Shown here one piece after another: positions 5,556-37,080 of a DNA stretch of 64,000 nt. The notes beneath the pieces were generated by a model. That model made no database searches, had not been told where the DNA came from, and worked only from the letters and a program-made list of their open reading frames with translations. The first letter of the stretch is position 1; every line of letters begins with the position of its first letter. The stretch is from assembly GCF_030384885.1 (NCBI RefSeq), contig NZ_CP128613.1; one strand, 5' to 3'. The stretch comes from Escherichia coli (GTDB taxonomy: Bacteria > Pseudomonadota > Gammaproteobacteria > Enterobacterales > Enterobacteriaceae). Made by a program: the position numbers and the translations under genes.

Positions 5556-6323
5556 ATGCGACATCCTTTAGTGATGGGTAACTGGAAACTGAACGGCAGC
5601 CGCCACATGGTTCACGAGCTGGTTTCTAACCTGCGTAAAGAGCTGGCAGGTGTTGCTGGCTGTGCGGTTGCAATCGCACCACCGGAAATGTACATCGATA
5701 TGGCGAAGCGCGAAGCTGAAGGCAGCCACATCATGCTGGGTGCGCAAAACGTGGACCTGAACCTGTCCGGCGCATTCACCGGTGAAACCTCTGCTGCTAT
5801 GCTGAAAGACATCGGCGCACAGTACATCATCATCGGCCACTCTGAACGTCGTACTTACCACAAAGAGTCTGACGAACTGATCGCGAAAAAATTCGCGGTG
5901 CTGAAAGAGCAGGGTCTGACTCCGGTTCTGTGCATCGGTGAAACCGAAGCTGAAAACGAAGCGGGCAAAACTGAAGAAGTTTGTGCACGTCAGATCGACG
6001 CGGTACTGAAAACTCAGGGTGCTGCAGCATTCGAAGGTGCGGTAATCGCTTACGAACCAGTATGGGCAATCGGTACTGGCAAATCGGCAACTCCGGCGCA
6101 GGCACAGGCTGTTCACAAGTTCATCCGTGACCACATCGCTAAAGTTGACGCTAACATCGCTGAACAAGTGATCATCCAGTACGGCGGCTCTGTAAACGCG
6201 TCTAACGCTGCAGAACTGTTTGCTCAGCCAGACATCGACGGCGCGCTGGTTGGCGGTGCTTCTCTGAAAGCTGACGCTTTCGCAGTGATCGTTAAAGCTG
6301 CAGAAGCGGCTAAACAGGCTTAA
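5556..6323 (+). CDS. tpiA: triosephosphate isomerase
   Basis: 255-aa ORF; TIM motifs ([20 protein letters not shown]). Confidence 0.95.
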
Positions 6324-8381: not shown

Positions 8382-8485
8382 TGCCATATGCGGCGCGAAC
8401 GCCTTACACGGCCTACAAAAGTTTGCAAATTCAATAAATTGCAGAATTCATGTAGGCCTGATAAGCGAAGCGCATCAGGCATTTT
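8382..8485. repeat. REP/BIME palindromic cluster
   Basis: gccatatgcggcgcgaacgccttacacggcctac ... gtaggcctgataagcgaagcgcatcaggc between sbp and pfkA. Confidence 0.75.
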
Positions 8486-9679: not shown

Positions 9680-10582
9680 TTATGAAAGCATAGACCGTTT
9701 ACCCTCCCTGGGTACGACGGAACAGGGGTCCTGATGGATAATCACATCCGATCCCGGAAAACGCCGTAAAATAGCCTGCTCTACCTGATCCGCCACCATA
9801 TGTGCCTGAACCAAAGGCAGAGAGTCTTCCATTTCCAAATGAATCTGAATAAAGCGGGTCGGCCCTGACTGCCGCGTGCGAAGATCGTGAGCGCCGCTAA
9901 CACCCGGCCAGGAAGTCACGATATCAATAATTTCTTGCCGTTCCTCATCAGGTAATGCGCGATCCAGTAATGACTGTACCGCCTCATATCCCATGCGTAA
10001 CGCGCTATATAAAATATAGATGCCGATTCCCAATGCAAACAGAGCATCGGCGCGATGCCAGCCGTACCAGGACAACCCCAGCGCCAGCAGAATTGCGCCG
10101 TTCATCATAACATCAGACTGGTAATGTAGCATATCAGCCCGCACCGCCTGGCTTTGCGTCCGGCGCACCACCCACCGCTGAAATGAGACAAGGATAATCG
10201 TACAAATTAGCGCCACAATTGTTACGATAACCCCGACGCCTGGATCTGTCATCGGTGTTGGAGATACCAGATGTTGAATACCCGTCAAAAACAGGAATAG
10301 TGCCGAACCGGAGATAAACATACTTTGCGCCAGCGCCGCGAGGGACTCAGCTTTACCGTGACCAAACGAGTGATTATCGTCGGCAGGTTGCAGGGAATAT
10401 CGCACCACCAGTAAATTCGTCAACGACGCGCCGATATCCACCAGCGAATCCACCAGCGCGGCGAGAATACTCACCGACCCGGTATACCACCATGCAAAAA
10501 TTTTAATCAGCAATAGCAGCGAAGCCATCGCCGTTGCAGCAATCGCCGCCCGACTGACCAGCCGTCCATAAGATTGATTCAT
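9680..10582 (-). CDS. fieF: cation diffusion facilitator Fe/Zn efflux transporter
   Basis: ORF 9680-10624; start set at [13 protein letters not shown] (300 aa); CDF family membrane protein. Confidence 0.92.
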
Positions 10583-10663
10583 AAATACTCCCGCTATCAA
10601 CTGACGGTAGTATAACGGAAGCAAATCATCTGCAATGCATTAAGCAGTAGGCAAATTGAGGAT

Positions 10664-10730
10664 AAAAAAAACCCCCACATCATGTGGGGGAAGACAGGGA
10701 TGGTGTCTATGGCAAGGAAAACAGGGTTTA
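10664..10730 (-). ncRNA. cpxQ: cpxP 3'UTR-derived small RNA (CpxQ-like), including the terminator hairpin
   Basis: Hairpin cccccacatcatgtggggg plus T-run on the minus strand directly after the cpxP stop; CpxQ is known to be processed from the cpxP 3' end. Boundaries approximate. Confidence 0.5.
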
Positions 10731-11231
10731 CTACTGGGAACGTGAGTTGCTACTACTCAATAGCTTCAACGATGAACTTTTTTGCCATTGCGTCACGTCG
10801 CGCAACTGCTCCATTCGTTGTTGATGTTTCTCGTTTAAAACCGCTTGCTGCTCCGGCGTTAACAGGCGATACATTTGGTTGCGGACTTTTGCCATCTCAA
10901 CCTGACGAGCAATTTGCTCATTCGCCATTTTTTCTGCCTGTGCGCGCACAGCGTTTTCATCAAAATTTTCTGCGGTGACAAGGCGATGCATTGTCTCCAG
11001 TTCGCTAACATTAACAGGCGGCTGTTCGTGCCGGGCCTGTTGCATAAGATCTCGCATCTGCTGACGCTGATGTTCGGTTAAACTTATGCCGTCGAACATA
11101 TGGCTCTGCGTACTGCGCTGCGTAAGTTCTTCACCCGGATGCCAGTTATCGCCTGAACCGACTTCAGCAGCGTGGCTTAATGAACTGACTGCCAGCGTTG
11201 AGGCCATGACGGCAGCGGTAACTATGCGCAT
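10731..11231 (-). CDS. cpxP: periplasmic Cpx pathway inhibitor/adaptor
   Basis: ORF 10731-11234; second ATG gives [21 protein letters not shown] (166 aa); contains LTxxQ motifs. Confidence 0.93.
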
Positions 11232-11304
11232 CATTTGCTCCCAAAATCTTTCTGTCGCGATTCAACGATAGAGAGTTTACGATTCAGGCTGCAAACATGC
11301 GTCA

Positions 11305-11330
11305 GGGGGTGTAAAACAACGTAAAGTCAT
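11305..11330. promoter_or_regulatory. CpxR-P binding site (GTAAA-N5-GTAAA) in the cpxP/cpxRA divergent promoter region
   Basis: gtaaaacaacgtaaag tandem GTAAA boxes between cpxP and cpxR. Confidence 0.7.
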
Positions 11331-11380
11331 GGATTAGCGACGTCTGATGACGTAATTTCTGCCTCGGAGGTATTTAAACA

Positions 11381-12079
11381 ATGAATAAAATCCTGTTAGT
11401 TGATGATGACCGAGAGCTGACTTCCCTGTTAAAGGAGCTGCTCGAGATGGAAGGCTTCAACGTGATTGTTGCCCACGATGGGGAGCAGGCGCTTGATCTT
11501 CTGGACGACAGCATTGATTTACTTTTGCTTGATGTCATGATGCCGAAGAAAAATGGTATCGACACATTAAAAGCACTTCGCCAGACACACCAGACGCCTG
11601 TCATTATGTTGACGGCGCGCGGCAGTGAACTTGATCGCGTTCTCGGCCTTGAGCTGGGCGCAGATGACTATCTCCCGAAACCGTTTAATGATCGTGAGCT
11701 GGTGGCACGTATTCGCGCGATCCTGCGCCGTTCGCACTGGAGCGAGCAACAGCAAAACAACGACAACGGTTCACCGACACTGGAAGTTGATGCCTTAGTG
11801 CTGAATCCAGGCCGTCAGGAAGCCAGCTTCGACGGGCAAACGCTGGAGTTAACCGGCACTGAGTTTACCCTGCTCTATTTGCTGGCACAGCATCTGGGTC
11901 AGGTGGTTTCCCGTGAGCATTTAAGCCAGGAAGTGCTGGGCAAACGCCTGACGCCTTTCGACCGCGCTATCGATATGCACATTTCCAACCTGCGTCGTAA
12001 ACTGCCGGATCGTAAAGATGGTCACCCGTGGTTTAAAACCTTGCGTGGTCGCGGCTATCTGATGGTTTCTGCTTCATGA
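11381..12079 (+). CDS. cpxR: envelope stress response regulator
   Basis: 232-aa OmpR-family response regulator; recognised sequence. Confidence 0.95.
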   Translation: MNKILLVDDDRELTSLLKELLEMEGFNVIVAHDGEQALDLLDDSIDLLLLDVMMPKKNGIDTLKALRQTHQTPVIMLTARGSELDRVLGLELGADDYLPKPFNDRELVARIRAILRRSHWSEQQQNNDNGSPTLEVDALVLNPGRQEASFDGQTLELTGTEFTLLYLLAQHLGQVVSREHLSQEVLGKRLTPFDRAIDMHISNLRRKLPDRKDGHPWFKTLRGRGYLMVSAS

Positions 12080-13459: not shown

Positions 13460-13545
<86 letters not shown>

Positions 13546-19315: not shown

Positions 19316-22328
<3,013 letters not shown>

Positions 22329-22410: not shown

Positions 22411-23235
22411 ATGCAAAACATTACCCAGTCCTGGTTTGTCCAGGGAATGATCAAAGCCACCACCGACGCCTGGCTGAAAGGCTGGGACGAGCGCAACGGC
22501 GGCAACCTGACGCTGCGCCTGGATGACGCCGATATCGCGCCTTATCACGACAACTTCCATGCACAACCGCGCTATATCCCGCTCAGCCAGCCCATGCCTT
22601 TACTGGCAAATACACCGTTTATTGTCACCGGCTCCGGCAAATTCTTTCGTAACATCCAGCTTGATCCTGCGGCTAACTTAGGCGTCGTAAAAGTCGACAG
22701 CGACGGCGCGGGCTACCACATTCTCTGGGGGCTAACTCACGAAGCCGTTCCAACCTCTGAACTTCCGGCTCACTTCCTTTCCCACTGCGAGCGCATTAAA
22801 GCCACCAACGGTAAAGATCGGGTGATCATGCACTGCCACGCCACCAACCTGATCGCCCTTACCTACGTACTGGAAAACGACACCGCGCTCTTCACTCGCC
22901 AGCTTTGGGAAGGCAGCACCGAGTGTCTGGTAGTGTTCCCGGATGGCGTCGGCATTTTGCCGTGGATGGTGCCCGGCACGGACGAAATCGGCCAGGCGAC
23001 CGCACAGGAAATGCAAAAACATTCGCTGGTGTTGTGGCCCTTCCACGGCGTCTTCGGCAGCGGTCCGACACTGGATGAAACATTCGGTTTAATCGACACC
23101 GCAGAAAAATCAGCACAAGTATTAGTGAAGGTTTATTCGATGGGCGGCATGAAACAGACCATCAGTCGTGAAGAGCTGATAGCACTCGGCCAGCGTTTCG
23201 GCGTTACACCACTAGCCAGTGCGCTGGCGCTGTAA
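22411..23235 (+). CDS. rhaD: rhamnulose-1-phosphate aldolase
   Basis: ORF 22321-23235; start at [21 protein letters not shown] (274 aa); the upstream ORF portion overlaps the REP. Confidence 0.93.
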
Positions 23236-31080: not shown

Positions 31081-31273
31081 TTTCTATTAACCGGATAAGA
31101 ACACACACACCAACATTATGGTATTCTGTTACAAACCCTTCCTGGATGGAGGGAAATTGAGCCAATTCTGGACCTTTGCGGCCCCTTCCGCAAAGAAAAA
31201 TAACTCCCACTCCCTGCACACGCAGCAAGCGAATGTAAATGGGACGTGACAATGTCGAAACAAGGAGCAATCC

Positions 31274-34200
31274 ATGCAGGTCAGCAGAAGGCAGTTCTTT
31301 AAGATCTGCGCTGGCGGTATGGCAGGCACCACGGCAGCGGCACTGGGTTTTGCACCCAGCGTAGCACTCGCGGAAACCCGGCAGTATAAACTGCTGCGCA
31401 CCCGCGAAACCCGTAATACCTGCACCTATTGTTCCGTAGGCTGTGGGCTGTTGATGTACAGCCTCGGTGACGGAGCAAAAAACGCCAAAGCATCTATCTT
31501 CCATATCGAAGGTGACCCGGATCACCCGGTCAACCGCGGTGCACTTTGTCCGAAAGGCGCTGGCCTGGTGGATTTCATCCACTCCGAAAGCCGTCTGAAG
31601 TTCCCGGAATACCGTGCCCCTGGTTCTGATAAATGGCAGCAAATCAGTTGGGAAGAAGCGTTTGATCGCATCGCCAAATTGATGAAAGAAGACCGCGATG
31701 CTAACTACATTGCGCAAAACGCCGAAGGCGTGACTGTTAACCGCTGGCTCTCCACCGGAATGCTGTGTGCTTCCGCGTCGAGTAACGAAACCGGCTATTT
31801 AACGCAAAAATTCTCCCGCGCGCTGGGTATGCTCGCGGTCGACAACCAGGCGCGTGTCTGACACGGACCAACGGTAGCAAGTCTTGCTCCAACATTTGGT
31901 CGCGGTGCGATGACCAACCACTGGGTCGACATCAAGAACGCCAACCTCGTCGTGGTGATGGGCGGTAACGCCGCTGAAGCTCACCCGGTCGGGTTCCGCT
32001 GGGCGATGGAAGCCAAAATTCACAACGGCGCGAAGCTGATTGTGATCGATCCTCGCTTTACGCGTACGGCGGCGGTGGCTGACTACTATGCCCCTATTCG
32101 TTCCGGTACTGACATTGCTTTCCTGTCAGGCGTATTGCTGTACCTGCTGAACAATGAAAAATTCAACCGCGAATACACCGAAGCCTATACCAACGCCAGC
32201 CTGATCGTGCGTGAGGATTACGGCTTTGAAGATGGCCTGTTCACCGGCTACGACGCGGAAAAACGCAAGTACGATAAATCCAGCTGGACCTACGAGCTGG
32301 ACGAAAACGGCTTCGCCAAACGCGATACCACGCTGCAACATCCGCGCTGCGTGTGGAACTTGCTGAAACAGCACGTTTCCCGTTATACGCCAGATGTGGT
32401 TGAAAACATCTGTGGCACGCCGAAAGACGCGTTCCTGAAAGTCTGCGAATACATCGCAGAGACCAGTGCTCACGATAAAACTGCCTCGTTCCTTTACGCG
32501 CTCGGCTGGACGCAACACTCCGTTGGTGCGCAGAACATTCGTACGATGGCGATGATCCAGCTACTGCTCGGCAATATGGGGATGGCAGGCGGCGGCGTTA
32601 ACGCCCTGCGCGGTCACTCCAACATTCAGGGGCTGACGGACCTGGGGCTGCTGTCGCAGAGCCTGCCAGGTTACATGACGCTGCCAAGCGAGAAGCAGAC
32701 CGATCTGCAAACCTACCTTGCCGCCAATACGCCGAAACCGCTGCTGGAAGGCCAGGTTAACTACTGGGGCAATTACCCGAAATTCTTCGTCTCCATGATG
32801 AAGGCCTTCTTTGGTGATAAAGCGACGGCAGAAAACAGCTGGGGCTTTGACTGGTTGCCGAAGTGGGATAAAGGCTACGACGTCCTGCAATACTTCGAGA
32901 TGATGAAAGAGGGCAAGGTCAATGGCTATATCTGCCAGGGCTTTAACCCTGTTGCCTCATTCCCGAACAAAAACAAAGTGATCGGTTGTCTGTCGAAACT
33001 GAAGTTCCTCGTCACTATCGACCCGCTGAACACTGAAACCTCTAACTTCTGGCAGAACCACGGTGAGCTGAACGAAGTGGACTCGTCGAAGATCCAGACC
33101 GAAGTGTTCCGTCTGCCATCGACCTGCTTCGCGGAAGAGAACGGTTCAATCGTTAACTCCGGTCGCTGGTTGCAGTGGCACTGGAAAGGTGCGGACGCCC
33201 CAGGGATTGCGCTGACTGATGGCGAGATCCTCTCCGGTATCTTCCTGCGCTTGCGCAAGATGTACGCCGAACAGGGTGGCGCGAACCCGGACCAGGTGCT
33301 GAACATGACCTGGAACTACGCCATCCCGCATGAGCCGAAGTCGGAAGAAGTGGCGATGGAGAGCAACGGTAAGGCGCTGGCCGATATTACCGATCCGGCA
33401 ACCGGGGCGGTTATCGTCAAGAAAGGCCAACAACTTAGCTCGTTCGCCCAACTGCGCGATGACGGTACCACCTCCTGTGGCTGCTGGATTTTCGCCGGTA
33501 GCTGGACGCCAGAGGGCAACCAGATGGCACGCCGTGATAACGCCGATCCGTCTGGCCTCGGTAACACGCTGGGCTGGGCATGGGCATGGCCGCTTAACCG
33601 CCGCATTCTGTATAACCGCGCCTCCGCAGATCCGCAGGGTAACCCGTGGGATCCGAAGCGTCAGTTGCTGAAATGGGACGGCACCAAATGGACCGGCTGG
33701 GATATTCCGGACTACAGCGCAGCGCCTCCGGGCAGTGGCGTCGGGCCGTTTATCATGCAGCAGGAAGGCATGGGGCGTCTGTTTGCCCTCGATAAGATGG
33801 CGGAAGGTCCGTTCCCGGAACACTACGAGCCGTTTGAAACGCCGCTGGGAACTAACCCACTGCATCCAAACGTTATCTCGAACCCGGCGGCGCGAATCTT
33901 TAAAGACGATGCCGAAGCATTGGGTAAAGCCGATAAGTTCCCGTATGTCGGAACCACCTATCGTCTGACCGAGCACTTCCACTACTGGACCAAACACGCG
34001 CTGTTGAATGCGATTTTGCAGCCAGAGCAGTTTGTGGAAATCGGGGAGTCGCTGGCGAATAAACTTGGCATTGCCCAGGGCGATACCGTGAAAGTCTCCT
34101 CCAACCGTGGCTATATCAAAGCCAAAGCGGTGGTGACCAAACGTATTCGTACGCTAAAAGCGAACGGCAAAGATATCGATACCATCGGTATTCCGATTCA

Positions 34201-36979: not shown

Positions 36980-37080
36980 GCCTGATGCGCTGCGCTTATC
37001 AGGCCTACCAATAAACTGCAATATGTTGAATTTGCACGACTTTGTAGGCAGGATAAGGCGTTCACGCCGCATCCGGCATG
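36980..37080. repeat. REP/BIME palindromic cluster
   Basis: gcctgatgcgctgcgcttatcaggcctac ... gtaggcaggataaggcgttcacgccgcatccggcatg after fdhE. Confidence 0.8.

Follow-up and report, generated by a model that had tools for sequence, protein, structure and literature searches.

The cpxQ small RNA gene at the 3′ end of cpxP in an Escherichia coli genome: identity, conservation and overlap with a phage attachment core

The 3′ untranslated region (UTR) of cpxP in the Escherichia coli genome studied here almost certainly contains the cpxQ gene, which occupies positions 10721 to 10664 on the minus strand of the window, that is, of the whole 64,000-nt stretch of contig NZ_CP128613.1 that was analysed. 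A probable CpxQ had been proposed for this place in the initial annotation, and the proposal is supported by near-complete identity with the K-12 gene (57/58 to b4716), together with position, strand and terminator, with a CpxR box upstream of cpxP and with stretches complementary to the cfa and skp mRNAs. CpxQ, which forms the noncoding arm of the Cpx response to inner-membrane stress, is already known and annotated in K-12, and there is nothing new in the element itself; a strand problem in Rfam family RF02628 and the overlap of cpxQ with the attB site of phage WPhi, both described below, are useful side notes, not discoveries.

Layout of the locus and identity of the RNA

The features of the cpxP-cpxQ region, with the basis of each in brackets, are as follows.

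10731-11231, minus strand: cpxP coding sequence, parental mRNA of CpxQ (ORF list and RefSeq features under the match)
10722-10730, minus strand: 9-nt spacer UAAACCCUG from the cpxP stop to the CpxQ 5′ end (alignment to K-12 cpxQ)
10664-10721, minus strand: CpxQ small RNA, 58 nt, UUUUCCUUGCCAUAGACACCAUCCCUGUCUUCCCCCACAUGAUGUGGGGGUUUUUUUU (57/58 against K-12 b4716)
10706-10721, minus strand: 5′ seed region, nt 1-16, UUUUCCUUGCCAUAGA (invariance and target pairing)
10692-10708, minus strand: predicted internal 5-bp hairpin AGACA/UGUCU with loop CCAUCCC, nt 14-30 (MFE and centroid folds)
10672-10690, minus strand: Rho-independent terminator hairpin CCCCCACA-UGA-UGUGGGGG (terminator scan and fold)
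10664-10671, minus strand: U8 tail, expected Hfq-binding 3′ end (sequence)

RefSeq annotation beneath the matching E. coli stretches consists of 'cpxP' and 'fieF', and in the ORF list the cpxP start is extended to an ATG at 11234 (ORF 10731-11234). The cpxP stop codon TAG lies at 10733-10731 and is followed directly by an in-frame TAA (10730-10728). Read on the plus strand, a run of eight A residues (10664-10671) precedes cccccacatcatgtggggg (10672-10690); on the minus strand these form a hairpin of 8 bp, 6 of them G-C, which has a loop of 3 nt and is followed by the U8 tail, and a consensus scan found this to be the sole minus-strand terminator-like site in 10300-11500. Given the position of the stop codon and the end of the hairpin and U8 at 10664, the interval 10664-10730 coincides exactly with the cpxP 3′ UTR up to and including the U-tract, and the UTR and terminator claimed there were indeed found by sequence, ORF list and terminator scan. 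Two details of the earlier description need amending: the hairpin and U-run exist, but the string quoted for the hairpin is the plus-strand reading of an element that itself lies on the minus strand, and the distance from the cpxP stop to the hairpin, given as approximately 60 nt, is in fact 40 nt, about 60 being the length of the mature RNA inclusive of hairpin and tail. The hairpin at 10672-10690 is predicted both to terminate cpxP and to make up the 3′ structure of CpxQ. In Hfq-dependent small RNAs (sRNAs) a 3′ U tail is the expected Hfq-binding end, and the hairpin and U8 tail match the usual Hfq module in the terminator scan and fold.

In K-12 MG1655 the ncRNA gene cpxQ (b4716) corresponds to NC_000913.3 4106330-4106387, with a length of 58 nt, and lies between cpxP and fieF in the gene order cpxA-cpxR / cpxP-cpxQ-fieF. 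When window 10721 to 10664 (minus strand) was aligned with it, 57 of 58 positions were identical, the single mismatch being nt 42 (window 10680), the third base of the terminator loop, which is A in the window and C in K-12 and sits outside any pairing region. Divergence in the seed, which would have spoken against CpxQ, was sought in this alignment and none was seen in the window. Both genes share the locus, the strand, the 58-nt length, the start 9 nt past the cpxP stop, the terminator architecture and a CpxR-controlled parental gene, and they differ at nt 42 only, where the form seen in the window is the more frequent among E. coli. A stretch of 70 nt, running from the stop codon through the U-tract, is present in 5425 of 5426 complete E. 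coli genomes. In 4189 of the 5426 complete-genome records it is 100% identical to the window, which makes the window allele the majority form and that of K-12 the minority form. The 241 nt around the element likewise show 100% identity to many E. coli chromosomes.

The 58-mer folds with a minimum free energy (MFE) of -17.4 kcal/mol (z = -2.74 against shuffled sequences), and both MFE and centroid structures consist of the 5-bp hairpin (nt 14-18 with 26-30) and the terminator. Its near-universal presence in E. coli and this folding energy both speak against a chance feature. In the non-K-12 E. coli records listed, the RefSeq annotation produced by PGAP contains no feature over cpxQ, just cpxP and fieF; cpxQ is therefore named in the curated K-12 record only, and the sRNA goes unannotated in the others listed.

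Conservation across Enterobacterales

Species-representative genomes were scanned with the DNA pattern CTGTTTNCCTTGCCAN{6,12}CCTGTC, which has 20 fixed positions. Among the 120 matches listed, 114 were enterobacterial loci and six were chance matches in unrelated phyla, which were rejected, the terminator being absent from them. The enterobacterial loci listed span more than 30 genera of the Enterobacteriaceae, Erwiniaceae, Pectobacteriaceae and Yersiniaceae; since 20 bases are required by the pattern, lineages with diverged seeds fall outside this sample, and the frequency of divergence is not measurable from it. A homologue of cpxP lay immediately upstream of CpxQ on the same strand in 109 of 109 listed loci with such a homologue in the fetched DNA, and fieF lay downstream on the same strand in all 93 of the listed loci where it was found. 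The exact 58-mer of the window was the commonest form among the loci listed and recurs in 27 other species-representative genomes.

In 113 of the loci listed CpxQ nt 1-30 do not vary, apart from a 1-nt deletion in some Pantoea; 13 of these 30 positions are free of the pattern, and within the seed (nt 1-16) 11 of 16 are fixed by it. The CpxP proteins of the listed loci are 48-98% identical to that of the window (median 71%). The cpxP 3′ UTR is more conserved than the coding region in this sample, in which 20 positions are fixed by the pattern.

The terminator behaves differently. Among the matches listed, 49 distinct sequence variants were obtained with 25 different hairpins, and every stem is a perfect one of 6-9 bp, with two G-U pairs overall. 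Stem positions 4-7 exchange between CG, GC, AU and UA in a compensatory manner with no mismatches, and the tail has 7-9 U in all 49 variants, a few of which open with one or two C. These comparisons were made by folding each sequence separately and registering it from the base of the stem, in place of RNAalifold, which on a MAFFT alignment misregistered the variable-loop terminators and recovered only three stem pairs. Invariance of nt 1-30 alongside exchanging stems indicates that the 5′ part is held by its primary sequence and the 3′ part by its structure, as expected for seeds and a cleavage site on the one hand and for a terminator and Hfq module on the other. Because the region of the internal hairpin never varies across the genera listed, there is no covariation for or against that hairpin.

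This pattern bears on a simpler explanation, namely that the region is an inert cpxP 3′ UTR with a terminator and gives rise to no trans-acting RNA product. A sequence scan by itself proves no more than a terminator, which such a UTR would also have. An inert UTR would drift, however, and the invariance of the 30 nt before the hairpin in the more than 30 genera listed, where CpxP falls to 48% identity, counts against it, as does the 57/58 match to an experimentally characterised CpxQ; we consider the inert UTR very improbable and retain the reading of the element as CpxQ.

Regulation and biogenesis

One further feature belongs to the promoter of the parental gene, for which the CpxR consensus is GTAAA-N5-GTAAA.

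11311-11325, plus strand: CpxR box GTAAAACAACGTAAA between cpxR and cpxP, some 80-95 nt ahead of the cpxP start codon (consensus match)

No other perfect match to GTAAA-N5-GTAAA occurs in the 64-kb window, and the box points to control of cpxP, the parental gene, by CpxR. A promoter scan of the minus strand from 11403 to 10423 found no sigma-70-like -35/-10 pair, which fits an RNA made by processing and not from a promoter of its own. From the K-12 annotation, processing is predicted to take place between 10722 and 10721 (CCCUG|UUUUCC).

RNase E is known to cleave CpxQ out of the cpxP mRNA with assistance from Hfq (PMC9438474, PMC4817254), on which CpxQ depends and to which it binds (PMC4817254, PMC9438474), and the product carries a 5′ monophosphate and is very stable (PMC9438474, PMC10250213). 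It could alternatively be a primary transcript initiated at a promoter within the 3′ end of cpxP, as some 3′ UTR sRNAs, e.g., MicL, have internal promoters (PMC5736990). Besides the outcome of the promoter scan, this is opposed by the 5′ end of the RNA, UUUU, which is a poor initiating sequence (PMC10250213), and by the abolition of CpxQ when the conserved RNase E cleavage site is mutated (PMC9438474), so that we attach very little probability to a promoter of its own and favour processing.

Near-identity of the sequence to the CpxQ that has been studied allows the following course of events to be proposed for the strain of the window. Phosphorylated CpxR at the box 11311-11325 would drive the cpxP promoter, as the literature indicates, and the transcript would run through cpxP and end at the hairpin and U8 (10690-10664), both of which are present in the sequence. 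RNase E and Hfq would then cut 9 nt past the stop codon, releasing a stable 58-nt RNA with a 5′ monophosphate, of which the terminator and U tail would be held by Hfq. The invariant, single-stranded nt 1-31 would be left to pair with the skp, cfa, nhaB, agp, ydjN, fimA and fadL mRNAs; translation of these targets would be blocked or their decay promoted, regulation that we infer for this strain from the published system, with complementarity seen directly for cfa and skp. The presumed effect would be fewer membrane proteins to handle during inner-membrane stress.

Such a pathway would place CpxQ beside SdhX, SroC, NarS and GlnZ, which are also released from an mRNA 3′ end by RNase E, act with Hfq through short seed pairing and use the terminator of the parental mRNA (PMC9438474). 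Unlike, e.g., GlnZ, CpxQ has a monocistronic parental mRNA and is conserved over its entire length (PMC8550237).

Complementarity to target mRNAs

CpxQ represses nhaB, skp, agp, ydjN, fimA and cfa (PMC9438474, PMC4817254, PMC10250213, PMC6755755, PMC5736990), with fadL as a more recently reported target (bioRxiv 10.1101/2024.10.18.618624), and its 5′ end is the seed for nhaB and cfa (PMC6755755). Pairing with K-12 target sequences was evaluated by whole-mRNA RNAduplex, which permits long internal loops, and by a short-window duplex scan.

In the short-window scan positions -135..-127 of the cfa 5′ UTR (GGCAAGGGU) pair with CpxQ nt 3-12 at -14.3 kcal/mol, just downstream of the G residues -143, -147 and -148, in agreement with the published site (PMC6755755). 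In the whole-mRNA comparison the unstructured part of CpxQ scored -25.7 against the cfa leader, a value matched or beaten by one of 200 shuffles. For skp, the short-window scan paired positions -18..-6 with CpxQ nt 2-14 (-15.9 kcal/mol), and it matched a second stretch of CpxQ, ACCAUCCC (nt 17-26), to positions -21..-12 (UGGGAUGGUA), which overlap the ribosome-binding region, at -15.1 kcal/mol. Either stretch is thus complementary to the region around the skp translation start (-21..-6), AAGGAG included. The sequences of the seed and of these two validated targets, cfa and skp, are thus consistent with direct pairing.

By whole-mRNA RNAduplex cfa alone stood out, the scores of nhaB, skp and cpxP being no better than those of shuffles. 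Nor did the best duplexes of nhaB surpass shuffled sequences in the short-window scan, by which its published coding-region site was not singled out. Pairing of CpxQ with the cpxP 5′ region, as suggested previously (PMC4817254), reached -15.9 kcal/mol, a value for which 174 of 200 shuffles were at least as good, and it was set aside.

Rfam and the Erwinia orthologue Hrs1

At gathering thresholds, Rfam yielded nothing at the locus, no CpxQ family being matched. With permissive thresholds RF02628, Hrs1 (Hfq-regulated sRNA 1), matched the plus strand at 10664-10736 with 44.5 bits (E = 3.5e-7), below the gathering score of the family (56.4) and on the strand opposite to cpxP and CpxQ. Minus-strand matches to NsiR1, RyhB, anti-hemB, OmrA-B and Spy779816 in the same permissive search had E >= 0.1 and were dismissed as generic terminator similarity.

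As the RF02628 match is the only near-significant one and lies on the plus strand, its orientation would imply a functional RNA on that strand. The RF02628 consensus, however, opens with A7 and a hairpin, i.e. a terminator read backwards, and a plus-strand RNA would be without a U tail. In Erwinia, Pantoea and Winslowiella the family is matched above threshold, at 63-69 bits, again on the strand opposite to cpxP and CpxQ, and the same inversion was seen at every locus checked (L043, 1373-1446; L016, 3279-3351; L052, 6295-6368; L075). The hrs1 gene of Erwinia amylovora, at 130070-130143 on the plus strand, was described as encoding a 74-nt, Hfq-dependent RNA with a Rho-independent terminator, located between cpxP and fieF and co-oriented with both ('> > >') (PMC4070566). 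With published hrs1 on the cpxP strand and the model matching the opposite one, RF02628 appears to be reverse-complemented, and a functional RNA on the plus strand is therefore hardly credible; the minus-strand CpxQ remains the preferred reading.

Judged by alignment, Hrs1 is the CpxQ orthologue: it shares the cpxP-fieF site, the strand, Hfq dependence and the terminator, aligns over its whole length, and differs in being reported as 74 nt long, its 5′ end lying some 16 nt upstream of that of CpxQ (Zeng and Sundin 2014). The authors' grouping of Hrs1 as Erwinia-specific (PMC4070566) does not hold. Automated RNA annotation misses CpxQ, as Rfam has only Hrs1, apparently on the wrong strand, and a merged and strand-corrected CpxQ/Hrs1 family would annotate the sRNA across Enterobacterales.

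cpxQ as a phage attachment site

Most of the sRNA gene also coincides with a further feature of the window.

10661-10707, no strand assigned: 47-nt attB core used by WPhi-type P2-like phages, unoccupied here, equal to CpxQ nt 15-58 plus AUC (exact WPhi attP match)

In the genome of WPhi (NC_005056) the core at 22552-22596 plus 2 nt, located between ogr and int and flanked by arm repeats of the tgTGGaCa type, is identical to window 10707-10661 at 47 of 47 positions, and a second P2-like phage lineage shows 45/45 core identity with the window. The integrases of the two lineages are 68% identical. The 70-nt element was found at 6099 places in the 5426 E. coli records, i.e. at more places than there are genomes, and one of the surplus copies is located on a circular 'plasmid' of 32 kb, in fact a P2-like phage genome (L002), about 110 nt from its integrase gene. 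In strain K_EC180 (L003) cpxP and fieF are separated by the remnant of a P2-like prophage, a segment with int (20189-21169) and ogrK (31188-31406) that is bordered by direct repeats of the core (20029-20070 and 31520-31561); fieF follows at 31643. Alignment of attB from the window, attP from the circular phage and both K_EC180 junctions gives the classical att pattern with the common core CACCATCCCTGTCTTCCCCCACATGATGTGGGGGTTTTTTTTATC.

The left junction after integration is a 100% identical cpxQ, as the phage carries an identical copy of nt 15-58 plus 3 nt and its integration rebuilds an intact gene. Junctions of cpxQ with an integrase and a WPhi-like arm were found in 792 of 5426 complete E. 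coli genomes and junctions with the arm of the second lineage in 41 of 5426; together these make 833, in agreement with the 836 genomes whose cpxQ and fieF do not adjoin each other. A P2-like prophage or remnant thus occupies this site in about 15% of the complete E. coli genomes; in the window the site is empty. The allele at window nt 42 is that of the WPhi attP core, so that K-12 has one mismatch inside the att core.

The integration site itself is known, having been described as 'cpxP-fieF' intergenic before CpxQ was known. We take the offset between the old and current MG1655 numbering to be about 1977 bp, which would put coordinate 4104392 at about 4106369, inside cpxQ. This coordinate was given by Nilsson et al. 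for WPhi and L-413C in MG1655 (PMC3448106), and prophage Wphi1 was placed at 'cpxP-fieF' in the E. coli W genome paper (PMC3032704). No paper linking CpxQ to the WPhi integrase site was found in the literature searched, which misses most subscription journals and is no proof of novelty. Location of the WPhi site inside cpxQ adds CpxQ to the sRNA genes that serve as phage docking sites, and comparable P2-like sites include those of P2 at cyaR, Rybb prophages at rybB, Fels-2 and SopE-phi at ssrA and 186 at tRNA-Ile, where, as at cpxQ, the core is the 3′ part of a conserved RNA gene that is rebuilt from the phage copy (PMC3032704, PMC3448106).

Conservation of the element could in principle be due to the attachment site instead of RNA function, given the exact 47-nt match to the WPhi attP core and the occupation of about 15% of E. 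coli genomes. The core, however, comprises nt 15-58 only and the invariance extends to nt 1-14 and the cleavage context, and the terminator arms, which lie within the core, vary freely between genera, the opposite of what this would predict. Hosts gain nothing by keeping a phage entry site, and phages are known to pick conserved RNA genes, such as those of tRNAs, ssrA, cyaR and rybB (PMC3032704, PMC3448106). Conservation driven by attachment is thus highly unlikely, and we ascribe the invariance to the function of CpxQ.

Regulatory consequences of the cpxQ/att overlap can be envisaged, although we regard them as improbable. Both attP and, in the roughly 15% of E. coli genomes that are occupied, the attR site upstream of fieF contain CpxQ nt 15-58, a copy truncated at its 5′ end in which the terminator, where Hfq binds, and the second stretch able to pair are still present. 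Were it transcribed, this copy might behave as a partial CpxQ or compete for Hfq. WPhi ogr appears to have a hairpin and T-rich terminator of its own before attP, which argues against expression of the truncated copy by read-through. Integration of WPhi might also be more or less efficient in K-12, where the loop base within the att core is C in place of A. In studies of cpxQ in natural isolates an adjacent prophage is worth checking for, considering the approximately 15% of genomes concerned.

Similar arrangements were observed outside E. coli. In Yersinia pestis NCTC5923 (L069) a fragment of 99 residues with 67% identity to the WPhi integrase is encoded right after CpxQ, about 170 nt downstream of the CpxQ 5′ end, which suggests a past P2-like integration at the Y. 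pestis cpxQ, although Yersinia is reported to lack a matching attB for L-413C (PMC3448106). A genome labelled Erwinia sp. OLFS4 (L118) has a full-length integrase gene beside cpxQ, 159 nt downstream of the CpxQ 5′ end, its product sharing 99% identity with the integrase encoded by the circular P2-like phage from E. coli (L002). In several other genera (L007, L014, L090, L105) the U-tract is followed directly by phage-like arms, and arms and integrases beside cpxQ in several genera indicate that the site is used across genera.

Other Rfam matches in the window

Elsewhere in the window Rfam matched a SECIS_3 selenocysteine insertion element at 31856-31914 on the plus strand (84.3 bits), which by its position presumably lies in the formate dehydrogenase-O gene fdoG. 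Further matches above gathering score were naRNA4 (CssrE), a REP-type repeat just past cpxA at 13464-13541 on the plus strand, and two copies of ES036 (CssrF), at 8418-8459 on the plus strand and 37001-37043 on the minus strand.
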